Assembly (NCBI GenBank): GCA_037147155.1
Contig: JBAWVR010000001.1
Span: 1 to 58,842, forward strand
Reading direction: 5' to 3'
Length of the DNA stretch: 58,842 nt
From: a bacterium
GTDB taxonomy: Bacteria > Patescibacteriota > Minisyncoccia > Phycocordibacterales > GWA1-40-21
Shown one piece after another: positions 7,179-58,842 of this stretch. The position numbers and the translations under genes were made by a program. Position 1 is the first letter of the stretch; each line of letters begins with the position of its first letter. The notes beneath the pieces are model-generated. The model searched no databases. It was not told the DNA's origin and saw only the letters and a list, made by a program, of their open reading frames with translations.

Positions 7179-7216
7179 AACCAAGGTCGGTCCTTGGTCT
7201 GACCTTATTTTAAGCC
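7179..7216. repeat. partial copy of the AACCAAGGTCGGTCCTTGGT hairpin unit
   Basis: AACCAAGGTCGGTCCTTGGT plus CTGACCTTATTTTAAGCC resembles the left arm and core of the units at 18444-18506 and 24450-24511. Confidence 0.6.
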
Positions 7217-17407: not shown

Positions 17408-17546
17408 CCCGGTTGTGAGTTTTGGCATCGTTTTTAAAATTGCGTACCGGTACTGTTTTGATTATCCAATTAGCAAAACAGACCCTAGCTTAATACTAGA
17501 GTCTGTTCTGTTAAAAACAATTTTAATGCCAAAATCTACAACGGGG
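17408..17546. mobile_element. family A hairpin/TIR element (MITE-like), copy A1
   Basis: 139 bp with termini CCCGGTTGTGAGTTTTGGCA ... TGCCAAAATCTACAACGGGG. Near-identical copies lie at 35664-35801 (inverted) and 53695-53832. Flanked by TTA/TTA, and the right TTA is the rplY stop codon. Confidence 0.75.
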
Positions 17547-18422: not shown

Positions 18423-18506
18423 CCACCTGTGGATAACTTTCCTAACCAAGGTCGGTCCTTGGTTAACCCTTGTAAAATAAGGCCAAACCAAGGACCGACC
18501 TTGGTT
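18423..18506. repeat. 21-nt flank with a DnaA-box 9-mer plus 63-bp palindromic unit (orientation 1)
   Basis: CCACCTGTGGATAACTTTCCT (TGTGGATAA at 18428-18436). Then AACCAAGGTCGGTCCTTGGTT, core AACCCTTGTAAAATAAGGCCA and AACCAAGGACCGACCTTGGTT. Confidence 0.8.
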
Positions 18507-18549
18507 TAGCCTATTCGTTACTGTCTTCGTGACCAGACTTTGTCTTAAT

Positions 18550-24428: not shown

Positions 24429-24511
24429 CCACCTGTGGATAACTTTCCTAACCAAGGTCGGTCCTTGGTTTGGCCTTATTTTACAAGGGTTAACCAAGGA
24501 CCGACCTTGGT
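24429..24511. repeat. 21-nt flank with a DnaA-box 9-mer plus 63-bp palindromic unit (orientation 2)
   Basis: Same 21-nt flank as at 18423 (TGTGGATAA at 24434-24442). The core TGGCCTTATTTTACAAGGGTT is the exact reverse complement of the core at 18465-18485. Confidence 0.8.
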
Positions 24512-24518
24512 CTGGGAA

Positions 24519-24631
24519 GGTTATGTAAAATATGAGAAGAAAAGATGAGGGGCAATATATTATATGTATAAAATGTGAGGGAGAAATATATTATATGTAG
24601 AAAAAGTGAGAGTAAAATATGTCTATCTGGG
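24519..24631. repeat. AT-rich tandem repeat, about 30 bp x 3.5
   Basis: Units AAAGATGAGGGGCAATATATTATATGTAT / AAAATGTGAGGGAGAAATATATTATATGTAG / AAAAAGTGAGAGTAAAATATGTCTATCTGG, plus a partial leading unit. Confidence 0.6.
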
Positions 24632-30062: not shown

Positions 30063-30165
30063 AGCCCTGTCTAGTCTTTTAGCTACAATCGGACACAAAA
30101 AACACTTACGGGTCAAATGCGATATTGTGAGTTTGTGTCCTGTCTTGTTGTATTTTCTTCGTCCT

Positions 30166-30190
30166 GGATTCCCGCCTGCGCGGGAATGAC
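30166..30190. repeat. family C palindrome (GGATTCCCGC..GCGGGAATGAC), solo half
   Basis: GGATTCCCGCCTGCGCGGGAATGAC, the same unit as at 34826-34850 and, in reverse complement, at 53466-53490. Confidence 0.8.
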
Positions 30191-30303
30191 AGAGGAGAAA
30201 AATCTCTTTCATTATTGCCTTTAATTATGGTAAAATTAGGACAAATACCAGAGACTGACATGACTGATTTTCTTATTAGAAACACCACCTAAAATTAAAC
30301 CTA

Positions 30304-34745: not shown

Positions 34746-34768
34746 AATAAAGCAAACCTCTACTGTTT

Positions 34769-34850
34769 GTCATTCCCGGCTTGACCGGGAATCCAGACCT
34801 TAAGTTACTATCACCTCCTCAACCTGGATTCCCGCCTGCGCGGGAATGAC
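34769..34850. repeat. family C composite palindrome (two inverted GTCATTCC hairpins)
   Basis: GTCATTCCCGGCTTGACCGGGAATCC (34769-34794) and GGATTCCCGCCTGCGCGGGAATGAC (34826-34850), separated by 31 nt. Confidence 0.8.
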
Positions 34851-34865
34851 AGAAAAATGAGCTTG

Positions 34866-35001
34866 TCCGGTTAGTGATTTTTACCTTCACTGTCTTTTGA
34901 CCAGCCAGACCATTATATACTGCTCAATCTGTAAATAAATATCGAGAAGACGAGGATGTCTCTTGGCAGAAACTGGTCAAAGGTAAAAATCTACTACGGG
35001 G
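34866..35001. mobile_element. divergent relative of the family A hairpin element (element E)
   Basis: 136 bp with termini TCCGGTTAGTGATTTTTACC ... GGTAAAAATCTACTACGGGG, plus an inner pairing CTTTTGACCAG / CTGGTCAAAGG. Confidence 0.5.
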
Positions 35002-35060
35002 TGGACTTTTCCCAATTATTTGGGTAGAATCACTGAGTTAATACTAATTTGTAAAAATCT

Positions 35061-35663: not shown

Positions 35664-35801
35664 CCCCGTTGTAGACTTTGGCATTAAAATTGTTTTTAAC
35701 CAAACAGGCTCTAGTATTAAACCAGGGTCTGTTTTGCTAATTAGATAATCAAACAATACCTGAACGCAATTTTAAAAACGATGCCAAAGCTCACAACCGG
35801 G
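35664..35801. mobile_element. family A hairpin/TIR element, copy A2 (inverted relative to A1/A3)
   Basis: Starts immediately after the efp TAA and is flanked by TAA/TAA. About 90 percent identical to the reverse complement of A1. Confidence 0.75.
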
Positions 35802-40724: not shown

Positions 40725-40762
40725 GTTCTTATAATATCACGGTTTTGAGGTTTATAAAAGAA

Positions 40763-41085
40763 CCCGGTTGTGAGTTTTCAACTTGAAAAATTTTTATAGA
40801 CCAAGTCTAAATAATCTTTAATACGCCGTTTGAGCATTCTAGAGCCTTGTGAGGTCTTGAGATGTTCTTCTCGCCTAATTGCGTCCTGTTCAGATAGACA
40901 AGCTTCGTAGTATACAAGTTTCCAGGGCTGATAACGCTTGGTAGAAAAATTTTTCTTTTGATTATGTTCTTTTATTCTCCTCTGTAAATCACCGGTGTAA
41001 CCATAGTAAAACTCCTCTGGATACTTTTGACTCTGTAGAACGTAGACATAAAAGAACATAATCGAGTTGAAAATCTACAACGGGG
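40763..41085. mobile_element. family A termini enclosing a GIY-YIG ORF (copy A4)
   Basis: CCCGGTTGTGAGTTTTCAAC ... GTTGAAAATCTACAACGGGG: the outer 16 nt at each end are identical to A1-A3, and the inner stem is changed but still complementary. It abuts the TAA of the M16 peptidase gene. Confidence 0.7.
40778..41059 (-). CDS. GIY-YIG nuclease family protein (93 aa)
   Basis: MFFYVYVLQS...YYGYTGDLQRRIKEHN...PWKLVYYEAC...AIRREEHLK: GIY/YIG, Arg and Glu motifs. Confidence 0.85.
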   Translation of the reverse strand: MFFYVYVLQSQKYPEEFYYGYTGDLQRRIKEHNQKKNFSTKRYQPWKLVYYEACLSEQDAIRREEHLKTSQGSRMLKRRIKDYLDLVYKNFSS

Positions 41086-42351
41086 TTATAGCTTAAACCA
41101 CCCTTCAAAATCCTTCTCGCTTCCCTTGCCCACCATGGCTAGATTCAATTTTTCATTTTTGAAAATCTCGCGGGCTAGTTTGCGGATGTCTTCAGCTGTA
41201 ATAGACAATATTTCTTTGCGTAAATCTTTTGGGCCCTTGAGCGGTAGACTCAAAACTTCCTGATGGCCAAAATAGCTGGCGATTTCATCTGTTGATTCAA
41301 GCCCGAGTGAGATACCTCCCAACAATTGGTTCTTCACCTTGGTCAATTCTTCTTTACCAACCAAGTCATCTTTCAAGCGACGCAACTCGGCCAAAATGGC
41401 TTCGGTGGCTACCTTTAGACGAGAATTATCCAATCCTGCGGAAACAGCAAATAAACCGTGATCAGTACAAAGGTCTGGACTAGCGTGAACATAATAACAA
41501 ACGCCAAGTTCATCACGAAGCTTTCTAAATAGACGAGAACTCATACCACCAGACAAGACGCCGGCAAGAACACGAAGAATGGCCTTCTTTTTGTTATATA
41601 CATCAAAAGTACGAACTCCCAGAATAATATGGGACTGATCAGTGTCTTTATTAAAGACTTTAACTTGTGGCACAGACTGAGATTCTTTCACTTTTAATTT
41701 AGCCTGCTTCTTGGCTTGTGGCATGTCTTTGAAATACTGAGCCACTTTTTTGGCTAAAACTTTCTCATCGAAATTACCTGCCACTACCATAGTGGTAGCC
41801 TGTGGTAAATAATTTTTGGACCGATAAGCCACGAAGTCTTCTCTGGTCATCTTTCTAACAATCTCCTTTTTACCAGCAATTCCCCAACCGGCTGGCTGAT
41901 CACCATACAAAAGCTCGGTAAAAACTTCCTCCACTTTTCTCTGGGGCAAATCTTCATACATATTTATCTCCTCAACAATCACACCTTTTTCTTTTTCAAT
42001 TTCTTTTGGATCAAAGACTGGGTGAAGATACATGTCTGAAACAATATCTAAAACTTTATCCAGATGCTGCGCCTCAGCTTTGGCATAATAGCCAGTGTAT
42101 TCAGTGGAGGTGAAAGCGTTATAACGCGCGCCCAAGCCATCAAACTCTGAGCTAATATCGCTCATGTGCGGACGCTTCTCAGTACCCTTGAAACACATGT
42201 GTTCCAAGAAGTGTGAGATGCCATTATTCTCTTTGTTCTCGTATTTTGAACCAGCCTCTACCATCACGAGGACGGTAATGGTTGGATTATCCTTCATTGG
42301 CACAGTGACCAAGCGCATGCCATTTGGCAAAACTTTTCTTTTGAATTTCAT
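41086..42351 (-). CDS. M16 (pitrilysin) family zinc peptidase
   Basis: 421-aa ORF with the HFLEHMCFKGT (HxxEH) motif. Confidence 0.85.
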   Translation of the reverse strand: MKFKRKVLPNGMRLVTVPMKDNPTITVLVMVEAGSKYENKENNGISHFLEHMCFKGTEKRPHMSDISSEFDGLGARYNAFTSTEYTGYYAKAEAQHLDKVLDIVSDMYLHPVFDPKEIEKEKGVIVEEINMYEDLPQRKVEEVFTELLYGDQPAGWGIAGKKEIVRKMTREDFVAYRSKNYLPQATTMVVAGNFDEKVLAKKVAQYFKDMPQAKKQAKLKVKESQSVPQVKVFNKDTDQSHIILGVRTFDVYNKKKAILRVLAGVLSGGMSSRLFRKLRDELGVCYYVHASPDLCTDHGLFAVSAGLDNSRLKVATEAILAELRRLKDDLVGKEELTKVKNQLLGGISLGLESTDEIASYFGHQEVLSLPLKGPKDLRKEILSITAEDIRKLAREIFKNEKLNLAMVGKGSEKDFEGWFKL

Positions 42352-46438: not shown

Positions 46439-49400
46439 CTATTTAACCAACTTTAACTTAAACTCACTCTCCCCGACTTTTAACACCTCTCCTTCCACTG
46501 TTCCAAAATCAATTTCTACTGTTGCTGTCTTTTTGATTTCTTCTTGATAAAGGGTGACCAGAGTTTTACCGGCGTCATCTGTCTCGATAGTCAATTTGGC
46601 AATCTCGCCAGGATTGAGTCCAGTAGTTTTTCTCATTTCTTGAATCTGACGCAAGAGGTCGCGGAAATTTCCTTCTAACTTCAGTTCGTCAGTAATGTTC
46701 AAATCTAATTTAGTTGATTCATCTAACTTATCATCAAACAACACAGCCTTAACATTCACTTCATCAATAATTAGATTTAGGAAATCATCTTTACCAGCGA
46801 GAGTTTTATCTTTGACAGTCATTGATGCAAGTGGCTGGCGAACTTTCTGTCCGGCTTTAGCACGCATTTCTAATCCAACACTCACCAAACGACGAGTCTC
46901 AAACATGTTGCCCAAAAGTTCAGTATCCTTGGAATTTAATTCTGTCGCCTTTGGCCAATCTGCCAAGTGCACTGATTCTTTGTCGGTTTCAGTCTTCAAA
47001 GATTGATACAAAGTTTCGGAGACAAACGGCATGATTGGAGCCAAGAGCTTGGTCATTTCCAACAAAACATATCTAGTGGTCATAAGACCCTGATCTCTAT
47101 CTTCTACTACATCAGACTTGAAACGATCACGGGAACGACGCAAATACCAAGTAGACAAATCATCAACGAAATCTCCGAACGGACGAGCAGCCCGGTCTAG
47201 TTCATAATTCTCCAAGCCTTTGGTAACCGTCGCAGTTAATTCTTTGAGACGAGCCAGGATCCAGCGGTCCAAAACATTGGTACTGTCAGCGCTTGGAGCC
47301 AAAGGTTTTTCTCCCTTGTACATCTCGTAGAAAGAATGCACGTTTTGCAAACGCATAATTATTTTTTTGACCACTTCATCAACGCCCTTTTCAGAGAAAC
47401 GTAGGTCTTCAGCTTTGACCACTGGGCTAGACAAGAGATAGTAACGCAAAGCATCAGCACCGTATTTAGACACCACCAGCATTGGGTCAGGATAGTTTTT
47501 CAAGCGCTTGGACATTTTCTGACCATCTTCCGCCAAAACAATTCCGTTCACCACAACATTTTTAAATGATGACTTGCCAAACAATCCAACAGCAATAACC
47601 AACATCGAGTAGAACCAGCCACGAGTCTGGTCGAGTCCTTCACCAATAAATTCAGCGGGAAAACCTATCGCCTTTTTGAGGAAGCCAGGCTCTGGATTAA
47701 ACTTGTCCAAATTCTCATATGGATAGTGCCACTGGGCATAAGGCATGGAACCAGATTCAAACCAACAGTCAAAGACTTCTGGCACACGCTTCATCTCTTT
47801 ACCTTCACCACAAGCACAAGGAATCTTTACTTCATCAATATATGGTCGGTGCAAATCCAATTCATAATTGTCATTGTGTGGAATTGGAGTAAAGTCCAAT
47901 TTCTTCACTTCAGCGTTCTTGATAAAATCATGAGCTTCATGACGCATAGCAATCGCTTGATCTGGAGTCATGCCGGCAGCGCCAGCAAACATAAGCCAGC
48001 CTGGTGTATTGTGCGTCACTATCAAAATCTTTTTACCGGAATATTTTGAATTTATATCATACAAGAAGCTCACCATACGGTTCTTCACATCAGTGTGACT
48101 TTCTCCTCCTTCTGGTACTTTGTGGAATTTTTCTTCACGAGAACCAAAATATGCCTGATACTCGGCATCGGTTTTTCCATCCATCACCCCAACATTTATC
48201 TCTGACAATCTTTTATCAAAAATAATTTTGTCTTTACTAAAACCAATCATATCAGCGATTATTTCTACGGTTTCTTTGGTACGAACAAAAGGTGAAGCAA
48301 AAACCATATCGATTTTTTCTTTCTTTAGATTCATCGCCGTCTCCCGAGCTTGTTCCCTACCCAATGCTGTCAAAGGATTTGGATCATCTACTTTAGCTGA
48401 CAAAATCTTTTTAACATTACTCTCTGATTGACCATGGCGAACAACCAAAAATTCATTTCTCTGACCAATCGTTTTTTTCAAATCCTCAACTCCTCCAATT
48501 ACTTTAATAGCTTTACAATCTTCACAACGCCAAATTGGCAATGGTGCTCCCCAATAACGAGAACGAGAAATTGCCCAATCACGAGCGCCTTCAAGCCATT
48601 TACCAAAACGTCCTTCGCCAATTTCTTTTGTTACCCAATTAATATCATTATTTGCCTTGAGCAAACTATCACGCATCTTGGTCACTTCCACGAACCATGA
48701 TGAGGTCGCGTAGTTCAGCAATGGAGTATCACAACGCCAACAGTGTGGGTAAGAGTGCACGACTTTTTCTTTGGCAAACAACTGATTCTTGCCAGCCAAA
48801 TGCTTAATCATGGCGATGTCCATAGACATATGCTTTTCTTTTTCTTCAGCGGTATCGATAGGTTTTACATACTGTCCGGCAAATTCAGTCACTTCTGGTC
48901 GCATCTTACCGTCATAGGACACATGCTGGATAAACGGCATCTTGTATTCTTTGCCAAGATTCAAGTCATCCTCACCGAAAGCTGGGGCGATATGCACCAC
49001 ACCAGTACCATCTTCGGTAGTGACAAATGAAGCAGGGTAAATTTTGAAACCATTCTCCAAATTCTTTATATCACTACCCGGCTTGGTGTAATAATCAAAT
49101 AGTGGAATATATTTTTTACCCACCAAAGTCTGACCATTAAATTTTTCTACCAATTCGTAAGTGTCCTTGATAACTGACAAGCGACTTTCCGCGAGAATAT
49201 AAAATTCCGCACCAACTTTAACTTTGACATAATCAATATCTGGATTAATCGCCAAGGCCACGTTGCCCGGCAAAGTCCAAGGAGTTGTCGTCCAAGCGAG
49301 AACGTATGCTCCCCTCTCATCGGCCAATTCAAATTTAGCAGTAGCGGTAATATCGGTAATATCTTTATATCCTTGAGCTACTTCAAAGTTGGACAAAGTG

Positions 49401-49981
49401 GTGCCACAATGTGGACAAAGATGCATAGATTTGAAACCTTCATAGACCAAACCTTTTTCATGAAGTGTACGGAAAATCCACCACACAGACTCGGTGTAGC
49501 TAGAGTTTATGGTGCGATAGTCTTGCTCCATATTCACCCAACGTCCCACTCTCGGCACAATCTTCTTCCATTCATCCGCATAACGCATCACACTTGAGCG
49601 TGCACGCTCATTAAAATCTTTTAGTCCGTAATCTTCAATATCTTTTTTTGACTTTAAGCCCAGTTCTTTTTCCACAATGTTTTCCACTGGTAAACCGTGA
49701 CAATCCCAACCCCATTTACGGTCAACATGAAAACCACACATAGTGCGGTAACGTGGAATAACATCCTTGATAGTACCAGCGAGGAGGTGGCCATAGTGAG
49801 GCAGGCCGGTCGCAAACGGTGGACCATCGTAAAAGACATATTCACCTTTTGGTGATTCCTTGGCTAGAGCTTTTTCAAAAATATTATTGGTCTGCCAAAA
49901 AGCCATAGTCTCCTCCTCTTTTTGGGCGAGAGCACTCTTTGGAAAATCAAAATCCTGTTCTGCTTCTTTGTTGTCTGACAT
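46439..49981 (-). CDS. ileS: isoleucyl-tRNA synthetase (type 2-like) with an inserted histidine-phosphatase domain
   Basis: 1180-aa ORF: PHYGHLLAG (HIGH), an editing domain, KMSKRLKN, and an extra ~190 aa with RHGQSESN ... SPFVRTKET ... GGESH ... VTHN at residues ~508-697. Confidence 0.9.
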   Translation of the reverse strand: MSDNKEAEQDFDFPKSALAQKEEETMAFWQTNNIFEKALAKESPKGEYVFYDGPPFATGLPHYGHLLAGTIKDVIPRYRTMCGFHVDRKWGWDCHGLPVENIVEKELGLKSKKDIEDYGLKDFNERARSSVMRYADEWKKIVPRVGRWVNMEQDYRTINSSYTESVWWIFRTLHEKGLVYEGFKSMHLCPHCGTTLSNFEVAQGYKDITDITATAKFELADERGAYVLAWTTTPWTLPGNVALAINPDIDYVKVKVGAEFYILAESRLSVIKDTYELVEKFNGQTLVGKKYIPLFDYYTKPGSDIKNLENGFKIYPASFVTTEDGTGVVHIAPAFGEDDLNLGKEYKMPFIQHVSYDGKMRPEVTEFAGQYVKPIDTAEEKEKHMSMDIAMIKHLAGKNQLFAKEKVVHSYPHCWRCDTPLLNYATSSWFVEVTKMRDSLLKANNDINWVTKEIGEGRFGKWLEGARDWAISRSRYWGAPLPIWRCEDCKAIKVIGGVEDLKKTIGQRNEFLVVRHGQSESNVKKILSAKVDDPNPLTALGREQARETAMNLKKEKIDMVFASPFVRTKETVEIIADMIGFSKDKIIFDKRLSEINVGVMDGKTDAEYQAYFGSREEKFHKVPEGGESHTDVKNRMVSFLYDINSKYSGKKILIVTHNTPGWLMFAGAAGMTPDQAIAMRHEAHDFIKNAEVKKLDFTPIPHNDNYELDLHRPYIDEVKIPCACGEGKEMKRVPEVFDCWFESGSMPYAQWHYPYENLDKFNPEPGFLKKAIGFPAEFIGEGLDQTRGWFYSMLVIAVGLFGKSSFKNVVVNGIVLAEDGQKMSKRLKNYPDPMLVVSKYGADALRYYLLSSPVVKAEDLRFSEKGVDEVVKKIIMRLQNVHSFYEMYKGEKPLAPSADSTNVLDRWILARLKELTATVTKGLENYELDRAARPFGDFVDDLSTWYLRRSRDRFKSDVVEDRDQGLMTTRYVLLEMTKLLAPIMPFVSETLYQSLKTETDKESVHLADWPKATELNSKDTELLGNMFETRRLVSVGLEMRAKAGQKVRQPLASMTVKDKTLAGKDDFLNLIIDEVNVKAVLFDDKLDESTKLDLNITDELKLEGNFRDLLRQIQEMRKTTGLNPGEIAKLTIETDDAGKTLVTLYQEEIKKTATVEIDFGTVEGEVLKVGESEFKLKLVK

Positions 49982-50509: not shown

Positions 50510-50628
50510 GTCATTGCGAGGTATTCCGAAGCAATCCAGTCTTAATGGCGTTTTTTAACTAAAGGTCTGCCCGCCCGTACCGGACGGTACGTTCGGGCGG
50601 GGATTGCTTCGGAATACCTCGCAATGAC
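50510..50628. repeat. composite palindrome: two inverted 28-nt GTCATTGC hairpins around a GC-rich hairpin
   Basis: GTCATTGCGAGGTATTCCGAAGCAATCC (50510-50537) and its exact reverse complement (50601-50628). CCCGCCCGTACCGGACGGTACGTTCGGGCGGGG (50570-50602) lies between them. The repeat overlaps the last ~25 codons of the RT ORF. Confidence 0.8.
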
Positions 50629-51622
50629 CCGACGTCTCAGTTACCTCTTTGGACAACCTCCCAGCATTCCCATGCCTCAACATCCCCAAGTACGACTGCA
50701 CGGTCGCCTCTTTACCTTGTTTCTCTGCAATATTCCTAAACATTCTTTTCTTGGTGGCATTACGAATCACTCGGTGGTCATTAAAATGCACCCACCCGAG
50801 AAAGTCCACTCCCGAAGCCACAGTTGATACAGAAACCTTATTGGGGTGAAGTGTGAGTTTTAATTCAGCTCCGAGGAATTCCCCAACTTTGACCAAAACC
50901 TCTTCCAACCACTTTTTGTCCTGCGACATAAAAACAAAGTCATCAGCATATCTAATATAGTGCTTGGCTTTTAGTTTATGCTTCGCAAATTGGTCAAACT
51001 TATTCATATAAATATTTACCAGTAGTTGAGAAGTCAGATTCCCCAAAGGCAAACCAACACCCGCATGAGTAGAATGAAAACTCCCGACGATTTTCTGGAG
51101 CAGTCCCCGAATATCTTCATCTGGTATGTATTCAAAAAGTATTTTCAATAAAACATTATGGTCAATACTCGCAAAAAACTTTTTAATATCACACTTCAAT
51201 ACCCAAACAGTCTTAGTGTGATTACAAGAAACTTGGTATTCAAATTTTCTAAATGTTTCTATTGCTTTGTGTGTGCCTTTGTTCACCCGACACGAATATG
51301 AGTCGCTAATGAAAGTCTTGTCGAAAAATGGGTAAAGGATTCTATATAGAGCATGGTGGAGCAATCTGTCTCTCACTCTGGCTTTGTGAATACTTCTTGG
51401 CTTGGGGTCGGAAATATTGAAAGCTTGATAGGGCGAGTGAACATATTTTTTATCCCTTAAATCTTCATGCAAAGAAATAATATTTGTCATTAAATTCCTT
51501 TCAAACTCTCTGACATCTTCCCGACTTTTCTTGCCTACGACAAATTCTTTCCAAGCCAAAAGCAGATTTTCCAGAGAAATAATGTTACTATACTTTTGTT
51601 CAAAAACTTTTTTGTTATTCAT
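50555..51622 (-). CDS. DGR-type reverse transcriptase
   Basis: 355 aa from MNNKKVFEQ (ATG 51622; the track ORF starts at 51697). Contains RT motifs, LPLGNLTSQLLVNIYMNKFD (GNLTSQ as in DGR RTs) and YIRYADDFVF. No maturase or endonuclease domains. A TR/VR pair lies nearby. Confidence 0.85.
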   Translation of the reverse strand: MNNKKVFEQKYSNIISLENLLLAWKEFVVGKKSREDVREFERNLMTNIISLHEDLRDKKYVHSPYQAFNISDPKPRSIHKARVRDRLLHHALYRILYPFFDKTFISDSYSCRVNKGTHKAIETFRKFEYQVSCNHTKTVWVLKCDIKKFFASIDHNVLLKILFEYIPDEDIRGLLQKIVGSFHSTHAGVGLPLGNLTSQLLVNIYMNKFDQFAKHKLKAKHYIRYADDFVFMSQDKKWLEEVLVKVGEFLGAELKLTLHPNKVSVSTVASGVDFLGWVHFNDHRVIRNATKKRMFRNIAEKQGKEATVQSYLGMLRHGNAGRLSKEVTETSGHCEVFRSNPRPNVPSGTGGQTFS

Positions 51623-51643
51623 AACTATTACAACATAAAATAC

Positions 51644-52025
51644 ATGACTATGACGCCCCCCCCCCGCAAAATTATTACCTCTACTACAAAAACTCAAGGA
51701 TAATTATATTCTCTGGTATAGCTACTATTTAACCCTACCTAAACTCCACCGTCATTCCTTGGGTCAAAAAATTGACTGCTTATATATTGAGATTATTGAA
51801 GCCATATCTATTGCCAGTTATCTATCTAAGGAAGAGAAACTGCCATGGGTTAGACTTGCCACCCGCAAGACTGACACTCTCAAAATATTACTTTTGGTTT
51901 TATGGGAAACCAAATCACTTGATAACAAGAAGTATCTAGCCGTATCGGTAAAAATTGAAGAAATCGGACGGATGCTTGGCGGTTGGAGTGGTCAAATATC
52001 TAAACAAAACTCTCCCAACAAATAG
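51644..52025 (+). CDS. avd: Avd-like four-helix-bundle accessory protein, reading frame broken at a C10 tract
   Basis: The track ORF 51759-52025 (TTG start) encodes ...LGQKIDCLYIEIIEAISIASYLSKEEKLP...EEIGRMLGGW. The same frame is open back to 51654 and encodes the expected first helix (ILWYSYYLTLPKLHRHS). The only ATGs (51644, 51650) are out of frame by one C of the run at 51656-51665. Confidence 0.6.
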
Positions 52026-52046
52026 TCGGGAGAGAAATAGAGAGAG

Positions 52047-52183
52047 TTGCGACGCAGGAACACGAAACGATTGTCTGCATTGTAGAAGTTGTCAGCATGG
52101 CCATTGTTGCTATTGAGCCACAACTCGCCATCATCATTGCACTTCACATTGAACACCTTGAGGTCGCCGTCCGAGTCGGTTAT
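52047..52183 (-). repeat. DGR template repeat (TR), 137 nt
   Basis: Aligns without gaps to 52542-52678 (121/137 identical). At all 16 mismatches this copy has T on the plus strand, which is A on the transcribed minus strand. Confidence 0.9.
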
Positions 52184-52434
52184 ATATAAAATATCATCCA
52201 TATCACTGTCCTTTGAATACTCTCAAGACTGTATCTAATTTGGCATCGTAATGCTCCAATATTTTATACCAAGTATCTCTTGTTTTTAATAATACACACA
52301 CCACTCTATCCAAAACCTTGATCTTGAATACTCTCGATGTATGGATACTGTGTTCGGTAGTAGAAAACCGTAATCTTCCACATATTCACCTACTTACTTT
52401 TTTATTATAGCAGACACGACCGTTTTTGAATATT

Positions 52435-52472
52435 AAAAAAGCACCCTCATTGCCGAAGCAAATTGAGGGTGC
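52435..52472 (-). terminator. rho-independent terminator after the DGR target gene
   Basis: GCACCCTCATTGCCGAAGCAAATTGAGGGTGC hairpin followed by TTTTTT on the minus strand. Confidence 0.7.
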
Positions 52473-52537
52473 CGGAGAGCCGAGAGAGAGCAAAGTACAA
52501 AGGGACAAAGAAGTCCCAAGGTTCTTAGCTCTGAGAA

Positions 52538-53179
52538 CTACTTGCGACGCAGGAACACGAAACGATGGTCAGCATTGTAGAAGCGGCCAGCATGGCCATA
52601 GTAGCTAGAGAGCCACAACCCGCCATCATCACCGCACTCCACATGGAACACCTCGAGGTCGCCGTCCGAGTCGGTGATGGGTTCCATCGCAATGATGATC
52701 CATTCTCCTCTCGGCTGGTCCTGGTACTGCAAACGCAGTTGGGGACCAACTTCGGCAGGACAGAGGTCGAGACCAAGCTTGATAGCTTGCTCGTAGATTT
52801 CCTTGATGCTAGCCCCTTCCTTGAAGCCAAGCTCGCGAACCGAGAGATTCACGAGATCAACCTCGTTTTCCGTAGTGGACACGCTGGCTTCAAAAGCAGA
52901 CTTGCCGAGGATATCGTTGGCCCAGTCGCTGATATTGCTACCAGCTTTCTTCAGAACCTTACGGAAGTCACCGGCATTCTTGGGCCCGGTGCCGATCTTG
53001 ATGGTCTTCCAGATCGGGAAGTCCTTATCAACTTCATCCAAAATCAGGGCCTCGAGAACCTCTTGCAGTCTTGTGGGGTTTCCCATCCACTTCTGCATTT
53101 TTTCCCCTGTGAGTCCGGCCGGAAGGCAGGTGCACATGGCGGAGATGAAAGCGGCGGTCTGTTTGTTAATTGTGCTCAT
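52538..53179 (-). CDS. DGR target protein (213 aa), fold not recognised
   Basis: ORF with AAGGAA upstream of the ATG. The last 45 codons are the VR. No signal peptide or TM helix. Visibly GC-richer than the surrounding sequence. Confidence 0.8.
   Translation of the reverse strand: MSTINKQTAAFISAMCTCLPAGLTGEKMQKWMGNPTRLQEVLEALILDEVDKDFPIWKTIKIGTGPKNAGDFRKVLKKAGSNISDWANDILGKSAFEASVSTTENEVDLVNLSVRELGFKEGASIKEIYEQAIKLGLDLCPAEVGPQLRLQYQDQPRGEWIIIAMEPITDSDGDLEVFHVECGDDGGLWLSSYYGHAGRFYNADHRFVFLRRK
52542..52678 (-). repeat. DGR variable repeat (VR)
   Basis: Counterpart of the TR. It begins one codon before the stop codon of the target gene, and the 16 differences from the TR all lie at TR-adenine positions. 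Confidence 0.9.
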
Positions 53180-53337
53180 GGTGTTTTTTCCTTTCTTAGG
53201 TTTTCACCATTTTATGCTTGACCATCAAACGCGATGGTCATAGCCAGAAACCTATGTTTTATGCCAGTTTACTGGCAAACAAGGGCTTGTGGCTATGACC
53301 ATTTAAGTAGTTTTCTTAGTCAAAGAACTATGTATAT

Positions 53338-53442: not shown

Positions 53443-53465
53443 AACACTTCCTTTTTTTCTCCTCT

Positions 53466-53555
53466 GTCATTCCCGCGCAGGCGGGAATCCAGTCTTATCT
53501 TTAAGACTTTCCTATCGGAAAGGTCGCCTGGATTCCTGGTCAAGCCAGGAATGAC
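53466..53555. repeat. family C composite palindrome
   Basis: GTCATTCCCGCGCAGGCGGGAATCC (53466-53490) and GGATTCCTGGTCAAGCCAGGAATGAC (53530-53555). Confidence 0.8.
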
Positions 53556-53694: not shown

Positions 53695-53832
53695 GCCGGT
53701 TGTGAGTTTTGGCATCGTTTTTAAAATTGCGTTCAAGTATTATTTTGATTATCTAATTAACAAAACAGACCCTAGCTCAATACCAGAATCTGTTCTGTTA
53801 AAAACAATTTTAATGCCAAAATCTACAACGGG
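53695..53832. mobile_element. family A hairpin/TIR element, copy A3
   Basis: Ends exactly at the argS stop codon (CTA at 53833-53835). About 90 percent identical to A1. Confidence 0.75.
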
Positions 53833-55602
53833 CTACATTTTCTCCGGTACCTCAATCCCCATCAAGTTCAATCCATTCTCCAAGACCTGTGCCGTAGCTT
53901 GGGCAATTGCCACACGATATGGTGAAGTAACTTCAGTCTTGTCCACGATTTTATGATTGGCATAATATGAATTAAATTCAGATGACAATTCAATCAAATA
54001 GGTGGCCATGAAGTGTGAAGAGTACTCGGTCTGACAACGCACTACCACTTCGGGGAAACGATAAATTATTTTCTCCACTCGACTGATTTCGGTTTCAGCT
54101 TTTTTCGCAGTCTTAAACATATTCCAGAAACCACCAATCACTCCAGCTTGTTTTGCCTTCTCTACAATGGACTTGGCACGGACACAGGTGTACTGAAGAT
54201 ATGGGCCAGAATCCCCTTCAAAGGATAGTGACTTCTCAAAATCAAAAATAATATCTTTGCCGGCCTCCTGTTTCAAAATAGAATAACGAATCGCACCGAC
54301 CGCAACAATCTCTGCCAACTTTTTCTTCTCTTCTTCGGTCATGACGCGCTCTTTGATTTTCTCAGTCGCAATTTCCTCCACATCAGAAATCATAGATTCT
54401 CCTGTGATCACATCACCGCGACGAGACGACATTTTACCGCCAGCAAAACGAAGCATACCATGAGAGATATGTTTGGTTTTCTCAGCTACTTCAGGTTCAA
54501 TCAAACTCAAAGCTTTCAATACTACCTTGAAATAATCACTCTGCTCGTGAGCAGTAATAATAATAGACTGATTGATATTTGGATTTTCTTTGAACTTCAA
54601 AGTATTCAAGCCCAACTCTTTGGTCTCATAAGTTGGAACACCCACAGAGTTCACGAACACGCGAGTGTGAAGACCATAATTTTCTCCACGGAAAATAGTG
54701 GCATTGTCACTCTTTTCAAAAATCCCTTTGGAATTTTCAGTCACAATAGTCAATCCATCTTTAACCACTTCACTTTCAAAATAATATCTATCAAATTTTG
54801 TGCCGAGTTTTTTGAATATTTCTTCAAAGTGCTTCATGCTGACAGCCTTACCAGCTTTGTGCAGTTTCATTATTTCTTCATCTTTGCCTTCAAAAATCAC
54901 TTTGTTCAACTGATCAATCTCAGCTTTTTCGGCTCCTTCTTTATCGTATTCTGATGAACCAAAAGTATAAGCCAAACCCCAAAAAGCCCCCTCATTATCA
55001 TGAGATAGCATAGCCACTTCTCTATCATAGACCGGCACTTTATCTTTCTTCTCCGCCAAATAATTCTGGTCCAATTTCTGATAGCCCCAAATAGCTTTGG
55101 CTACATGAAGACCAACATCACCTGAATAACAAGCACGTTTGACTTCGGCGCCAGCAAAAGCAATAAAACGTGACATGGTCTCGCCAACAGAGTTACTCAT
55201 GAGGTGACCAATGTGAAATTGTTTGAATGGATTTGGATCAGTGTACTCAATCAAAATCTTCTCCCCTTTTCGACTATCATTGCTACCATATTTTTTTCCA
55301 AGTTTAGGAATATTTTTTACTTCTATTTCAAAAAAGTCGGCCTGCAAATAAAAGTTGATGAAACCTGGGCCAGCGATTTCAATTTTCTCAACCTGGAGAA
55401 TATTTTTGGCATTTAATTTTTCTACAATTTTTTCAGCCGTTTGGCGTGGATTAAGACCAAGCTTTTTTGAGGCCACAAGAGAGGCATTTGTAGAATAATC
55501 TCCAAAATTCAAATCCTCTGGATGTTCAATGGCGATCTTGGCATCTGTGACACCCAAATCAGCCAAAACCTCCAAAACCGCTTTTTCTAATTGATTTTTC
55601 AT
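53833..55602 (-). CDS. argS: arginyl-tRNA synthetase
   Basis: 589-aa ORF: NPFKQFHIGHLMSN (HIGH) and GGKMSSRRG (KMSK-like). Confidence 0.93.
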   Translation of the reverse strand: MKNQLEKAVLEVLADLGVTDAKIAIEHPEDLNFGDYSTNASLVASKKLGLNPRQTAEKIVEKLNAKNILQVEKIEIAGPGFINFYLQADFFEIEVKNIPKLGKKYGSNDSRKGEKILIEYTDPNPFKQFHIGHLMSNSVGETMSRFIAFAGAEVKRACYSGDVGLHVAKAIWGYQKLDQNYLAEKKDKVPVYDREVAMLSHDNEGAFWGLAYTFGSSEYDKEGAEKAEIDQLNKVIFEGKDEEIMKLHKAGKAVSMKHFEEIFKKLGTKFDRYYFESEVVKDGLTIVTENSKGIFEKSDNATIFRGENYGLHTRVFVNSVGVPTYETKELGLNTLKFKENPNINQSIIITAHEQSDYFKVVLKALSLIEPEVAEKTKHISHGMLRFAGGKMSSRRGDVITGESMISDVEEIATEKIKERVMTEEEKKKLAEIVAVGAIRYSILKQEAGKDIIFDFEKSLSFEGDSGPYLQYTCVRAKSIVEKAKQAGVIGGFWNMFKTAKKAETEISRVEKIIYRFPEVVVRCQTEYSSHFMATYLIELSSEFNSYYANHKIVDKTEVTSPYRVAIAQATAQVLENGLNLMGIEVPEKM

Positions 55603-55703
55603 CCCGTTAGAGACTTGAGCATTATGTCTTTTGCCAAGCCTATTTTAATCTAGTAAATCTCTTGTTTAATTTGTAAAGTATCCCTCTTCGTCTCTAACGG
55701 GAT
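55601..55703. mobile_element. family B hairpin/TIR element, copy B1, abutting the argS start codon
   Basis: ATCCCGTTAGAGAC ... GTCTCTAACGGGAT. The left AT is part of the argS ATG on the minus strand. Related copy at 58522-58624. Confidence 0.7.
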
Positions 55704-58523: not shown

Positions 58524-58624
58524 CCCGTTAGAGGCTTGGGCATTATGTTTTCTGCCTAGCCATAGTTAATTTAATAAATATCTTAATTTTATTATACAAG
58601 ACCCCTCTTCGCCTCTAACGGGAT
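58522..58624. mobile_element. family B hairpin/TIR element, copy B2, abutting the glyA start codon
   Basis: ATCCCGTTAGAGGC ... GCCTCTAACGGGAT. Relative to B1, the A/T pair in the terminal stem is replaced by G/C on both arms. Confidence 0.7.
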
Positions 58625-58842
58625 CATGTTACCTTTAATATATTGTTTCAATCTGTTTTTAATATATCTTTTTCCCATGCCTGATTTCAAATATTTTTCT
58701 CTAGCCATTGCATCCTCCTGATTTAAACAAGCTTCGTAATAAACCAAATAATATGTATTATCCCTACTTGTGTAATATGATCTATTTGACTTGTGCTCTT
58801 TTAACCGCTTTTTTAAATCAGAAGTATACCCAGTATATATTC
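58592..58842 (-). CDS. GIY-YIG nuclease family protein, N-terminus beyond window edge
   Basis: Minus-strand frame reads ...IYTGYTSDLKKRLKEHKSN...YYLVYYEACLNQEDAMAREKYLKSGMGKRY...KGNMIPLEAKRGLV*. The last 11 codons and the stop lie inside element B2. Confidence 0.7.
   Translation of the reverse strand, partial: IYTGYTSDLKKRLKEHKSNRSYYTSRDNTYYLVYYEACLNQEDAMAREKYLKSGMGKRYIKNRLKQYIKGNMIPLEAKRGLV

Follow-up and report, generated by a model that had tools for sequence, protein, structure and literature searches.

The 58,842-nt stretch of DNA analyzed here (the window), from a member of the Patescibacteria, also known as the candidate phyla radiation (CPR), contains a short element at positions 40763-41085 in which the gene of a small GIY-YIG nuclease is enclosed between the two halves of a single hairpin stem. 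On balance, we favor the interpretation that this element represents a widespread CPR family of very small insertion sequence (IS)-like modules, each consisting of a GIY-YIG gene (approximately 88–93 aa) within the loop of its own hairpin, and we lean towards regarding nuclease and hairpin as a cognate mobile module that acts on folded single-stranded DNA (ssDNA), with the gene-less hairpins A1, A2, and A3 of the same genome as its partners. A preliminary description, made from the sequence of the window, had raised a minimal nuclease-in-hairpin unit as one reading of the element and a coincidence of shared ends as the other; the former is borne out in its core by the recurrence of the nuclease open reading frame (ORF) between terminal inverted repeats across homologous loci, by covariation within the stem, by flanks that look like target-site duplications, and by the occurrence of related units at unrelated sites.

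The nuclease gene and its enclosing stem

Homologues of the nuclease with lengths of 85–100 aa are numerous, with 135 word-indexed matches, 715 representative clusters at E ≤ 1e-10 among 1.84 billion, and at least 583 homologous loci in GTDB species representatives, nearly all of which are Patescibacteria/CPR; a tblastn search of the PLSDB plasmids with the 93-aa protein returned no match. For the family analysis, 80 homologous loci were retrieved and the flanks of the ORF were inspected in each. A simple inverted-repeat search found the ORF bracketed by a 20-bp inverted repeat in approximately 62 of 78 loci, and a stricter scan for the stem signature found it bracketed in at least 66 of the 80. 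The placement of the gene is regular: the 5′ arm ends 0–6 nt ahead of the ATG, usually with a conserved GATTATG next, the stop codon lies within or just ahead of the 3′ arm, and GIY-YIG is the only gene carried between these termini family-wide. The ORF and its termini are thus supported as one conserved unit, not a chance nesting.

The stem is selected as a pairing. Among 54 distinct stems, standard pairs occupy 92.5% of stem cells (76.3% in shuffles), 16 of the 20 pairs vary on both sides, and the covariation score of 0.496 compares with 0.183 for shuffled stems, was reached by none of 500 shuffles, and exceeds the slid controls (≤ 0.165). Positions 10-11 are non-Watson-Crick in 61 of 61 elements, reading G.T then A.C in 34 elements and A.C then G.T in the remaining 27. 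The two orders represent a single stem in opposite orientations with respect to the ORF, and nearest protein neighbors agree in orientation in 40 of 49 cases, which indicates that the stem has been flipped several times. The G.T/A.C step is absent from the duplex and appears only in a self-folded strand; since each folded strand shows one order, a flip of the stem is neutral for a mark read at the level of DNA and not for one read at the level of mRNA. It is mainly for this reason, that the flip is neutral for DNA and alters an RNA motif, that we place the function of the stem at folded ssDNA. No link was seen between the orientation of the stem and insertion at start or stop codons, the two being mixed by inspection.

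The element of the window conforms to this architecture. Its plus strand opens with CCCGGTTGTGAGTTTTCAAC (40763-40782) and closes with GTTGAAAATCTACAACGGGG (41066-41085), and these two 20-nt flanks pair with one another, not each with itself. The outermost 16-mers are CCCGGTTGTGAGTTTT (40763-40778) and AAAATCTACAACGGGG (41070-41085), each with five matches in the window at up to three mismatches, a number that none of 100 shuffles reached (shuffle mean, 0.6–0.75). On both sides they are identical to the ends of A1 (17408-17423, 17531-17546) and one base removed from those of A2 and A3, so that the earlier claim of identity with all three copies stands for A1 only. The remaining structural claims were accurate: the self-complementary inner stem segment TTTTCAAC/GTTGAAAA is present in the sequence, the TGA stop codon of the 93-aa ORF (40778-40780) lies inside the left terminus, and the element directly adjoins the TAA that ends the upstream M16 peptidase gene. 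The ATG of the ORF is placed 6 nt inside the right terminus. When the full 323 nt were folded as ssDNA, the terminal stem was predicted to form with a z-score of − 5.4. Beyond the left end of the element, the relative L001 retains with 100% conservation a 38-nt spacer that contains a degenerate copy of the 3′ arm; this copy could be left over from an earlier hairpin, or it could belong to the AI-2E transporter gene's promoter.

The protein itself matches the Pfam GIY-YIG family over residues 3–73 (E = 2.6e-15), and residues Y6, Y18, G20, R28, H32, and E64, which we take to be the catalytic-residue positions of GIY-YIG enzymes, are invariant across the family alignment. Its AlphaFold2 model is a single compact domain (pLDDT 94.4), for which Foldseek gave UPF0213 BH0048 and Slx1 as the best structural matches; a profile search of the PDB likewise returned UPF0213 proteins (42.7 and 33.2 bits) followed by Slx1. 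Neither Pfam nor the AlphaFold2 model shows a DNA-binding domain, the 93-aa protein being a bare catalytic domain, and Pfam shows no Y1_Tnp domain in the protein of the element, whose sole ORF encodes the GIY-YIG domain. The closest relative (L001) has a nuclease of 95% identity, in a unit at the orthologous site. The dN/dS of the ORF between the two is 0.054, and the ORF is under purifying selection. The termini are too, as the 40 nt of the arms are unchanged in this comparison while the dS of the flanking genes is 1.35 and 0.76; the dS of the nuclease ORF, 0.46, is below both.

Several features of the family loci L008-L087 concern translation. In their 5′ arms, two stop codons in tandem (TAG-TAG or TAG-TGA) share the frame of the nuclease ORF, the start codon is preceded by GATTATG with no visible Shine-Dalgarno sequence, and the stop codon of the ORF lies 15–23 nt before the duplicated host ATG. 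Taken together, these features suggest translational coupling through the element. Translational fusion was rejected as a rule, the duplicated host ATG being in frame with the nuclease ORF in three loci only.

Insertion footprints and gene-less hairpins

Direct flanking repeats of at least 3 nt border 42 of 65 elements, compared to approximately 18 expected from mismatched pairs of flanks, a control that is inflated by the many elements that share the same flank. The most frequent repeat is TATG (16 times), and others include ATG or ATGA, TAA, TAG or TTAG, TTG, CAA, GGAA, TACG, and TGAG; the strong excess of TATG is compatible both with a target preference and with microhomology copying. Many units lie at gene boundaries: 31 of the 65 abut the ATG (− 3 to + 1 nt) of an ORF that has at least 60 codons and runs in the same direction, and 10 abut an upstream stop codon. 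Where host genes overlap as ATGA, the tetranucleotide is duplicated and both genes keep their signals (L036, L073), a pattern that the hairpins B1 and B2 of the window also show. Tandem hairpins are present in L032 and L052. Related units have also been found in different surroundings, as those of L072 and L082 are 89.7% identical between flanks that have no similarity and those of L018 and L022 are 93% identical, with left flanks that are 71% identical.

Within the window, a scan for the family's stem signature recovered exactly A1, A2, A3, and the GIY-YIG element (five shuffles gave 0–2), such that the terminal inverted repeats are common to the coding element and the gene-less copies, with the signature in all four and the outer 16 nt shared with A1. 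The TTA repeats that had been reported around both A1 and A2 are there. The stem of A2 carries one compensatory pair change (U-A to C-G), and the outermost stem pair of A3 is altered from C-G to G-C. A1-A3 also carry a rare GTTGT variant of the stem, as do the arms of the nuclease gene, whereas most relatives have GTAGT; this shared variant, together with the stem signature, supports the impression that the nuclease gene and the A copies of this genome look like a cognate pair. A metagenome scan with an A-specific 20-mer yielded only four further A copies and one chance match. Copies from these related metagenome contigs lie at other sites as well, and the interiors of the four keep the internal hairpin by means of compensatory changes. 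The A3 site is also occupied in the related metagenome contig L101, in which the left junction is without 6 nt (CTACAG) and the outermost pair is C-G where the window has G-C. Upstream of the elongation factor P (EF-P) gene lies a fifth, degenerate A/GIY-type hairpin that keeps the G.T/A.C step and has an indel in its outer stem.

Gene-less hairpins of 64–70 nt and 126–140 nt adjoin GIY-YIG genes in many other CPR genomes, and they bear the same signature and the TTTGGCA/TGCCAAA inner stem of family A. Examples of the 64–70-nt class are found at L014 (1789-1856), L015 (637-705), L049 (1357-1421), and L068 (22-89), among others, and these small hairpins have flanking duplications of their own (TTGA in L014). 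In L014, L017, L024, L062, and L065, the GIY-YIG ORF is unenclosed and is followed by a small hairpin. The second GIY-YIG gene of the window resembles this group, as it has no 5′ arm and its frame runs into B2; it had been described as reading into a family B element, which is accurate, although it adjoins the hairpin and is not nested in it. The B hairpins are a separate variant without the tandem step. The earlier suggestion of non-autonomous derivatives is likewise upheld in part: gene-less hairpins with the signature are widespread, but the A interiors share nothing with the ORF. A recent origin of the A copies by deletion was accordingly rejected, the A and B interiors being unlike the ORF with nothing in common beyond the 16-nt ends. 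The features of the window that bear on this system are compiled in Table 1.

Table 1 Positions of the GIY-YIG element, its parts, and the related hairpins and genes in the window
Feature	Position	Strand	Remarks
Complete hairpin-bounded GIY-YIG element	40763-41085	minus	323 bp; terminal stem closes the unit as ssDNA
5′ arm, in ORF orientation, CCCCGTTGTAGATTTTCAAC	41066-41085	minus	holds an in-frame TAG and, at stem positions 10-11, the A.C/G.T step
3′ arm, in ORF orientation, GTTGAAAACTCACAACCGGG	40763-40782	minus	includes the TGA stop codon of the ORF
GIY-YIG nuclease ORF, single domain, 93 aa	40778-41059	minus	Pfam PF01541
TAA stop codon of upstream M16 peptidase gene	41086-41088	minus	abuts the element directly
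Degenerate copy of the 3′ arm (13/16 bases)	40738-40753	minus	9 nt beyond the element
A1 gene-less hairpin, 139 nt	17408-17546	plus	stop codon of the gene for ribosomal protein L25 on one side, terminator on the other; flanks TTA/TTA
A2 gene-less hairpin, 138 nt	35664-35801	minus	after the EF-P stop codon, terminator next; flanks TAA/TAA
A3 gene-less hairpin, 139 nt	53695-53833	plus	on the stop codon of the arginyl-tRNA synthetase (ArgRS) gene
Degenerate fifth A/GIY-type hairpin, GGTTAGTGATTTTTACC ... GGTAAAAATCTACTAC	34868-35003	plus	upstream of the EF-P gene
B1 hairpin, 101 nt, termini CCCGTTAGAGAC/GTCTCTAACGGG	55603-55703	minus	on the ArgRS ATG; ATGAA duplicated
B2 hairpin, 101 nt	58524-58624	minus	second GIY-YIG gene on one side, ATG of the serine hydroxymethyltransferase (SHMT) gene on the other; ATGA duplicated
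Second GIY-YIG gene, 96 aa in full	58594-58842	minus	cut by the window end; without arms of its own

Known systems, proposed mechanism, and rival explanations

The closest known parallel is the Ssn nucleases, which are 94-aa single-domain GIY-YIG proteins (family cd10448) that bind the hairpin repeats NTS and SRM as ssDNA only and cleave beside them (PMC11893778). These repeats are directional, cleavage persists when the hairpin is built from two half-oligonucleotides, and the NTS-ssnA-NTS layout has been noted as insertion-sequence-like (Chenal et al. 2025, PMC11893778); the repeats correspond to the CGTC-tagged repetitive extragenic palindromes (REPs) that formerly had no partner enzyme (Di Nocera et al. 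2013, PMC3733652). The earlier statement that nothing similar had been described for small bacterial GIY-YIG proteins is therefore outdated (PMC11893778). The element of the window shares with the Ssn systems a single GIY-YIG domain of approximately 90–95 aa, a gene flanked on both sides by a hairpin-forming repeat, many orphan repeats elsewhere in the genome, an asymmetry of the repeat that gives it direction, and an IS-like layout. An Azospirillum gene of the Ssn type (L088) has inverted pairs of CGTCATCCCCGCGAAGGCGGGGATCCAG on each side, and its protein is 34% identical to that of the window (pairwise E = 1e-10); against the family profile, proteins of the Ssn type score 47–49 bits, slightly above the 42.7 bits of UPF0213 BH0048. 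By these sequence comparisons, the 93-aa protein appears to be a relative of the Ssn proteins and about as close to UPF0213.

Several features set the element apart from Ssn. Each flank of an Ssn gene holds complete, self-folding hairpins of approximately 28 nt, as checked in the Azospirillum example, whereas here the gene is enclosed by a single 20-bp stem to which each flank contributes one half, and this stem has an invariant tandem mismatch. The target-site-like duplications and the exact placement at start and stop codons are not reported for Ssn, and the orphan copies here are composite hairpins of 65–140 nt. The SRM search pattern HGTCWYN(0-2)YYVSBRHN(0-5)WNVSBRGN(0-2)RNCYNB is absent from the termini of the element and matches the window only at 30164, 34768, 34824, and 53465. 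Of these sites, at 30164-30191, 34768-34796, 34824-34851, and 53465-53492, three match the Neisseria NTS core (GTCATTCCCGCGCAGGCGGGAATCCAG) exactly and one is an SRM variant. They are thus published targets of canonical Ssn nucleases occurring in a CPR genome, and the small ORFs tested beside them do not encode GIY-YIG proteins.

A second parallel is offered by the REP-associated tyrosine transposases (RAYTs), with their REPs and REPINs, and by the IS200/IS605 elements. In both, imperfect ssDNA hairpins are recognised, and inheritance is often vertical and single-copy. As in the present family, a gene lies between copies of its cognate palindromic repeat, and many gene-less copies are dispersed between genes. 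The enzymes differ, as an HUH/Y1 tyrosine transposase cuts and rejoins DNA whereas the domain here is a hydrolytic GIY-YIG. IS200/IS605 elements produce no target duplication and have subterminal hairpins, in contrast to the duplications and paired ends seen here, and the GTAG tag that is unpaired in the RAYT/REP systems is, as GTAG or GTTG, base-paired within the stem here. With UPF0213/YhbQ (PDB 1ZG2, 1YWL) and Slx1, the best PDB matches, the protein has in common the GIY-YIG fold and its catalytic residues; Slx1 cuts branched and hairpin-like DNA, although it requires Slx4 and has an extra zinc-finger domain, and to our knowledge no association of UPF0213 proteins with repeats has been described. 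A literature search found no description of a GIY-YIG gene enclosed by terminal inverted repeats in CPR, nor a paper on the features that separate the present units from Ssn.

On this basis, the module may be envisioned to work as follows. When the DNA is single-stranded, be it as the lagging-strand template, after uptake by transformation, or in repair intermediates, the 20-nt termini would pair with one another, and the invariant tandem G.T/A.C step at positions 10-11 would mark the identity of the strand. The protein would bind the folded stem and cut the ssDNA at its foot, by analogy with the Ssn nucleases, and cutting would copy or move the gene-carrying unit as well as the gene-less hairpins of the same stem (A1-A3), in a manner resembling RAYT transposases with REPs and REPINs. 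Insertion would leave duplications of 3–5 bp, and the surviving insertions would be the ones at gene boundaries that restore a start or stop codon, after which the unit would be co-transcribed inside operons. The nested architecture and its conservation across the family, the covariation and invariant step of the stem, the flanking duplications, the occurrence at unrelated sites, and purifying selection on ORF and termini are observed; recognition of the ssDNA hairpin, the position of the cut, and the part of the nuclease in mobility are inferred.

Several observations weigh against the mobile-module interpretation. We know of no GIY-YIG enzyme that rejoins strands, as these enzymes hydrolyse DNA, and a full chemistry of transposition thus cannot be formulated from the protein on its own; completion of the event would presumably fall to host ligase, to replication, or to template switching via the short duplicated microhomology. 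The duplications vary in length from 2 to 5 nt and are strongly biased towards TATG, which could reflect copying driven by microhomology rather than a fixed staggered cut. The element of the window has no flanking duplication (GAA vs TTA, plus strand), although the presence of the 13/16 arm relic 9 nt outside it means that this junction may have been reworked. The same element has been inherited vertically in its nearest relative. Copies within one genome are diverged, not identical (L015, L029, and L030, from one assembly), and with same-genome copies being diverged, no recent bursts of transposition were seen. The comparison of occupied and empty sites proposed earlier gave a partial answer: three syntenic relatives whose M16 peptidase is 74–77% identical are without the element, which counts in favor of mobility, but no clean empty site was recovered from them, the spacer being rearranged or holding other genes. 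The boldest extension of the mobile-module interpretation is one that we put forward tentatively and consider doubtful: that these units of approximately 310 bp are a new class of autonomous transposable elements, the smallest known in cellular genomes, in which a GIY-YIG nuclease of 88–93 aa, the sole protein, reads its own ssDNA-hairpin ends, marked by the tandem G.T/A.C step, and mobilises gene-less hairpins in trans, and whose insertions duplicate start or stop codons, which would allow them to reside within operons of streamlined CPR genomes.

Among the rival explanations, a domesticated Ssn-like host system deserves the most attention and is nonetheless unlikely in our estimation. Here the nuclease would cut incoming or recombining ssDNA that bears the hairpin, its gene would lie within its own target hairpin, and the hairpins would have spread slowly by other means. 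Vertical inheritance without a change of site, as seen in the closest relative, strong purifying selection, and the divergence of same-genome copies agree with this, as does the demonstrated host-level role of Ssn, given that SsnA/NTS limits transformation in Neisseria; the three exact NTS-core matches in the window would further imply that systems of the Ssn type occur in the organism. However, direct repeats flank whole gene-carrying units in most genomes, near-identical units occupy unrelated sites, and tandem insertions lie beside existing hairpins, which together indicate that gene and hairpin move as one piece, a behavior not required of a gene that serves only the host. A host system and a mobile module can both be true, as has been argued for RAYT/REPIN. 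Still less is to be said for free-standing homing endonucleases like the seg genes of phage T4, which cut alleles that lack them and are copied by recombination repair. GIY-YIG homing endonucleases such as I-TevI and Seg combine a catalytic with a DNA-binding domain, act at one cognate site by way of double-strand-break repair, and leave no duplications. Membership of the protein in the GIY-YIG family, the position between genes, and the syntenic relatives without the element are what homing has in its favor; the bare 93-aa catalytic domain and the homologous units at many sites with duplications, not at one cognate site, make it very improbable, and the homing unit entertained in the preliminary description is set aside, as the sites differ between genomes and carry duplications. 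As candidate targets, tRNA genes were also dismissed, none being present in the window.

The gene-less copies could alternatively be ordinary MITEs (miniature inverted-repeat transposable elements) mobilised in trans by a transposase encoded elsewhere, such as an IS5/PIF-like DDE enzyme with TAA/TTA duplications, with the GIY-YIG gene as a captured passenger. The likeness to bacterial MITEs (Correia/NEMIS, ERIC, RUP) is real, as it extends to a length of 65–140 nt, terminal inverted repeats, short TA-rich duplications (3–4 bp duplications of this kind being typical of DDE-driven MITEs), and co-transcribed positions at gene boundaries, and GIY-YIG enzymes have no known strand-transfer chemistry. 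Yet known MITEs derive from or are moved by IS elements of the DDE type, while the sole coding relative here is a GIY-YIG nuclease that is the only gene between the termini in at least 66 species at constant arm distances; a passenger would be expected to be neither so constant nor so strongly selected. The arms covary as a pairing around an invariant non-Watson-Crick step, which is unexpected for transposase binding sites and distinguishes them from MITE ends, the duplications vary in length, and no transposase was found among the window ORFs tested, a check that was not exhaustive. We regard this explanation as improbable, and the DDE transposase acting in trans that had been invoked for the TAA/TTA flanks is not needed, GIY-YIG being the only gene between the termini. 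An RNA-level device, with the hairpin as an mRNA processing site (e.g., for RNase III), stabiliser, terminator, or translational control and the A copies as elements of 3′ untranslated regions, is about as improbable. A1, A2, and L099 do lie between a stop codon and a terminator and are hence transcribed, the elements are co-directional with their neighbors, all copies fold strongly as RNA (z, − 5 to − 8), and the A interiors keep their hairpin via compensatory changes. Against this, both stem orientations occur with the non-Watson-Crick order swapped, which alters an RNA motif and not DNA, and the duplications and unrelated sites require insertion at the level of DNA. There is also no match to an Rfam family: the whole window gave nothing at the gathering threshold, and E-value scans of A1 and the GIY-YIG element gave sub-threshold, terminator-like noise only. 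Effects at the RNA level may exist as side effects.

Other features of the window and significance of the module

Apart from the system described above, the window contains a candidate diversity-generating retroelement at 50555-53221, with a reverse transcriptase (50555-51697, minus strand; Pfam RVT_1), a bAvd-like ORF (51759-52025), and two 137-nt repeats (52047-52183 and 52542-52678), in which all 16 mismatches are T in the first repeat versus C, G, or A in the second. A T in the first repeat is an A on the minus strand, which gives the adenine-specific hallmark of a template/variable repeat pair. Further hairpin repeat families were recorded: GTCATTGCGAGGTATTCCGAAGCAATCC, with a perfect inverse 63 nt away (50510-50537 / 50601-50628), and AACCAAGGTCGGTCCTTGGTT, which forms inverted pairs at three places (7179-7212, 18444-18519, and 24450-24525). 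A class I aminoacyl-tRNA synthetase ORF (46439-49981, 1180 aa) has a histidine phosphatase domain (His_Phos_1) inserted within the synthetase at residues 512–696.

Should the nuclease indeed act on the folded ends of its element, the module would constitute a third partnership between a nuclease and a hairpin repeat, after RAYT/REP and Ssn/NTS, and the first in which the gene is enclosed in the hairpin and the insertion footprints are clear. It would then provide direct sequence evidence for a mobile-element role of small GIY-YIG nucleases, which has only been hypothesised for Ssn, and would explain a large share of the small CPR genes annotated as "GIY-YIG nuclease family" and of the intergenic hairpins in these genomes. 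Harmless insertion into tightly packed operons would be achieved by duplicating ATG, ATGA, or TAA, and the invariant G.T/A.C step would offer a simple recognition rule that could extend the toolbox of ssDNA nucleases with sequence and structure specificity.

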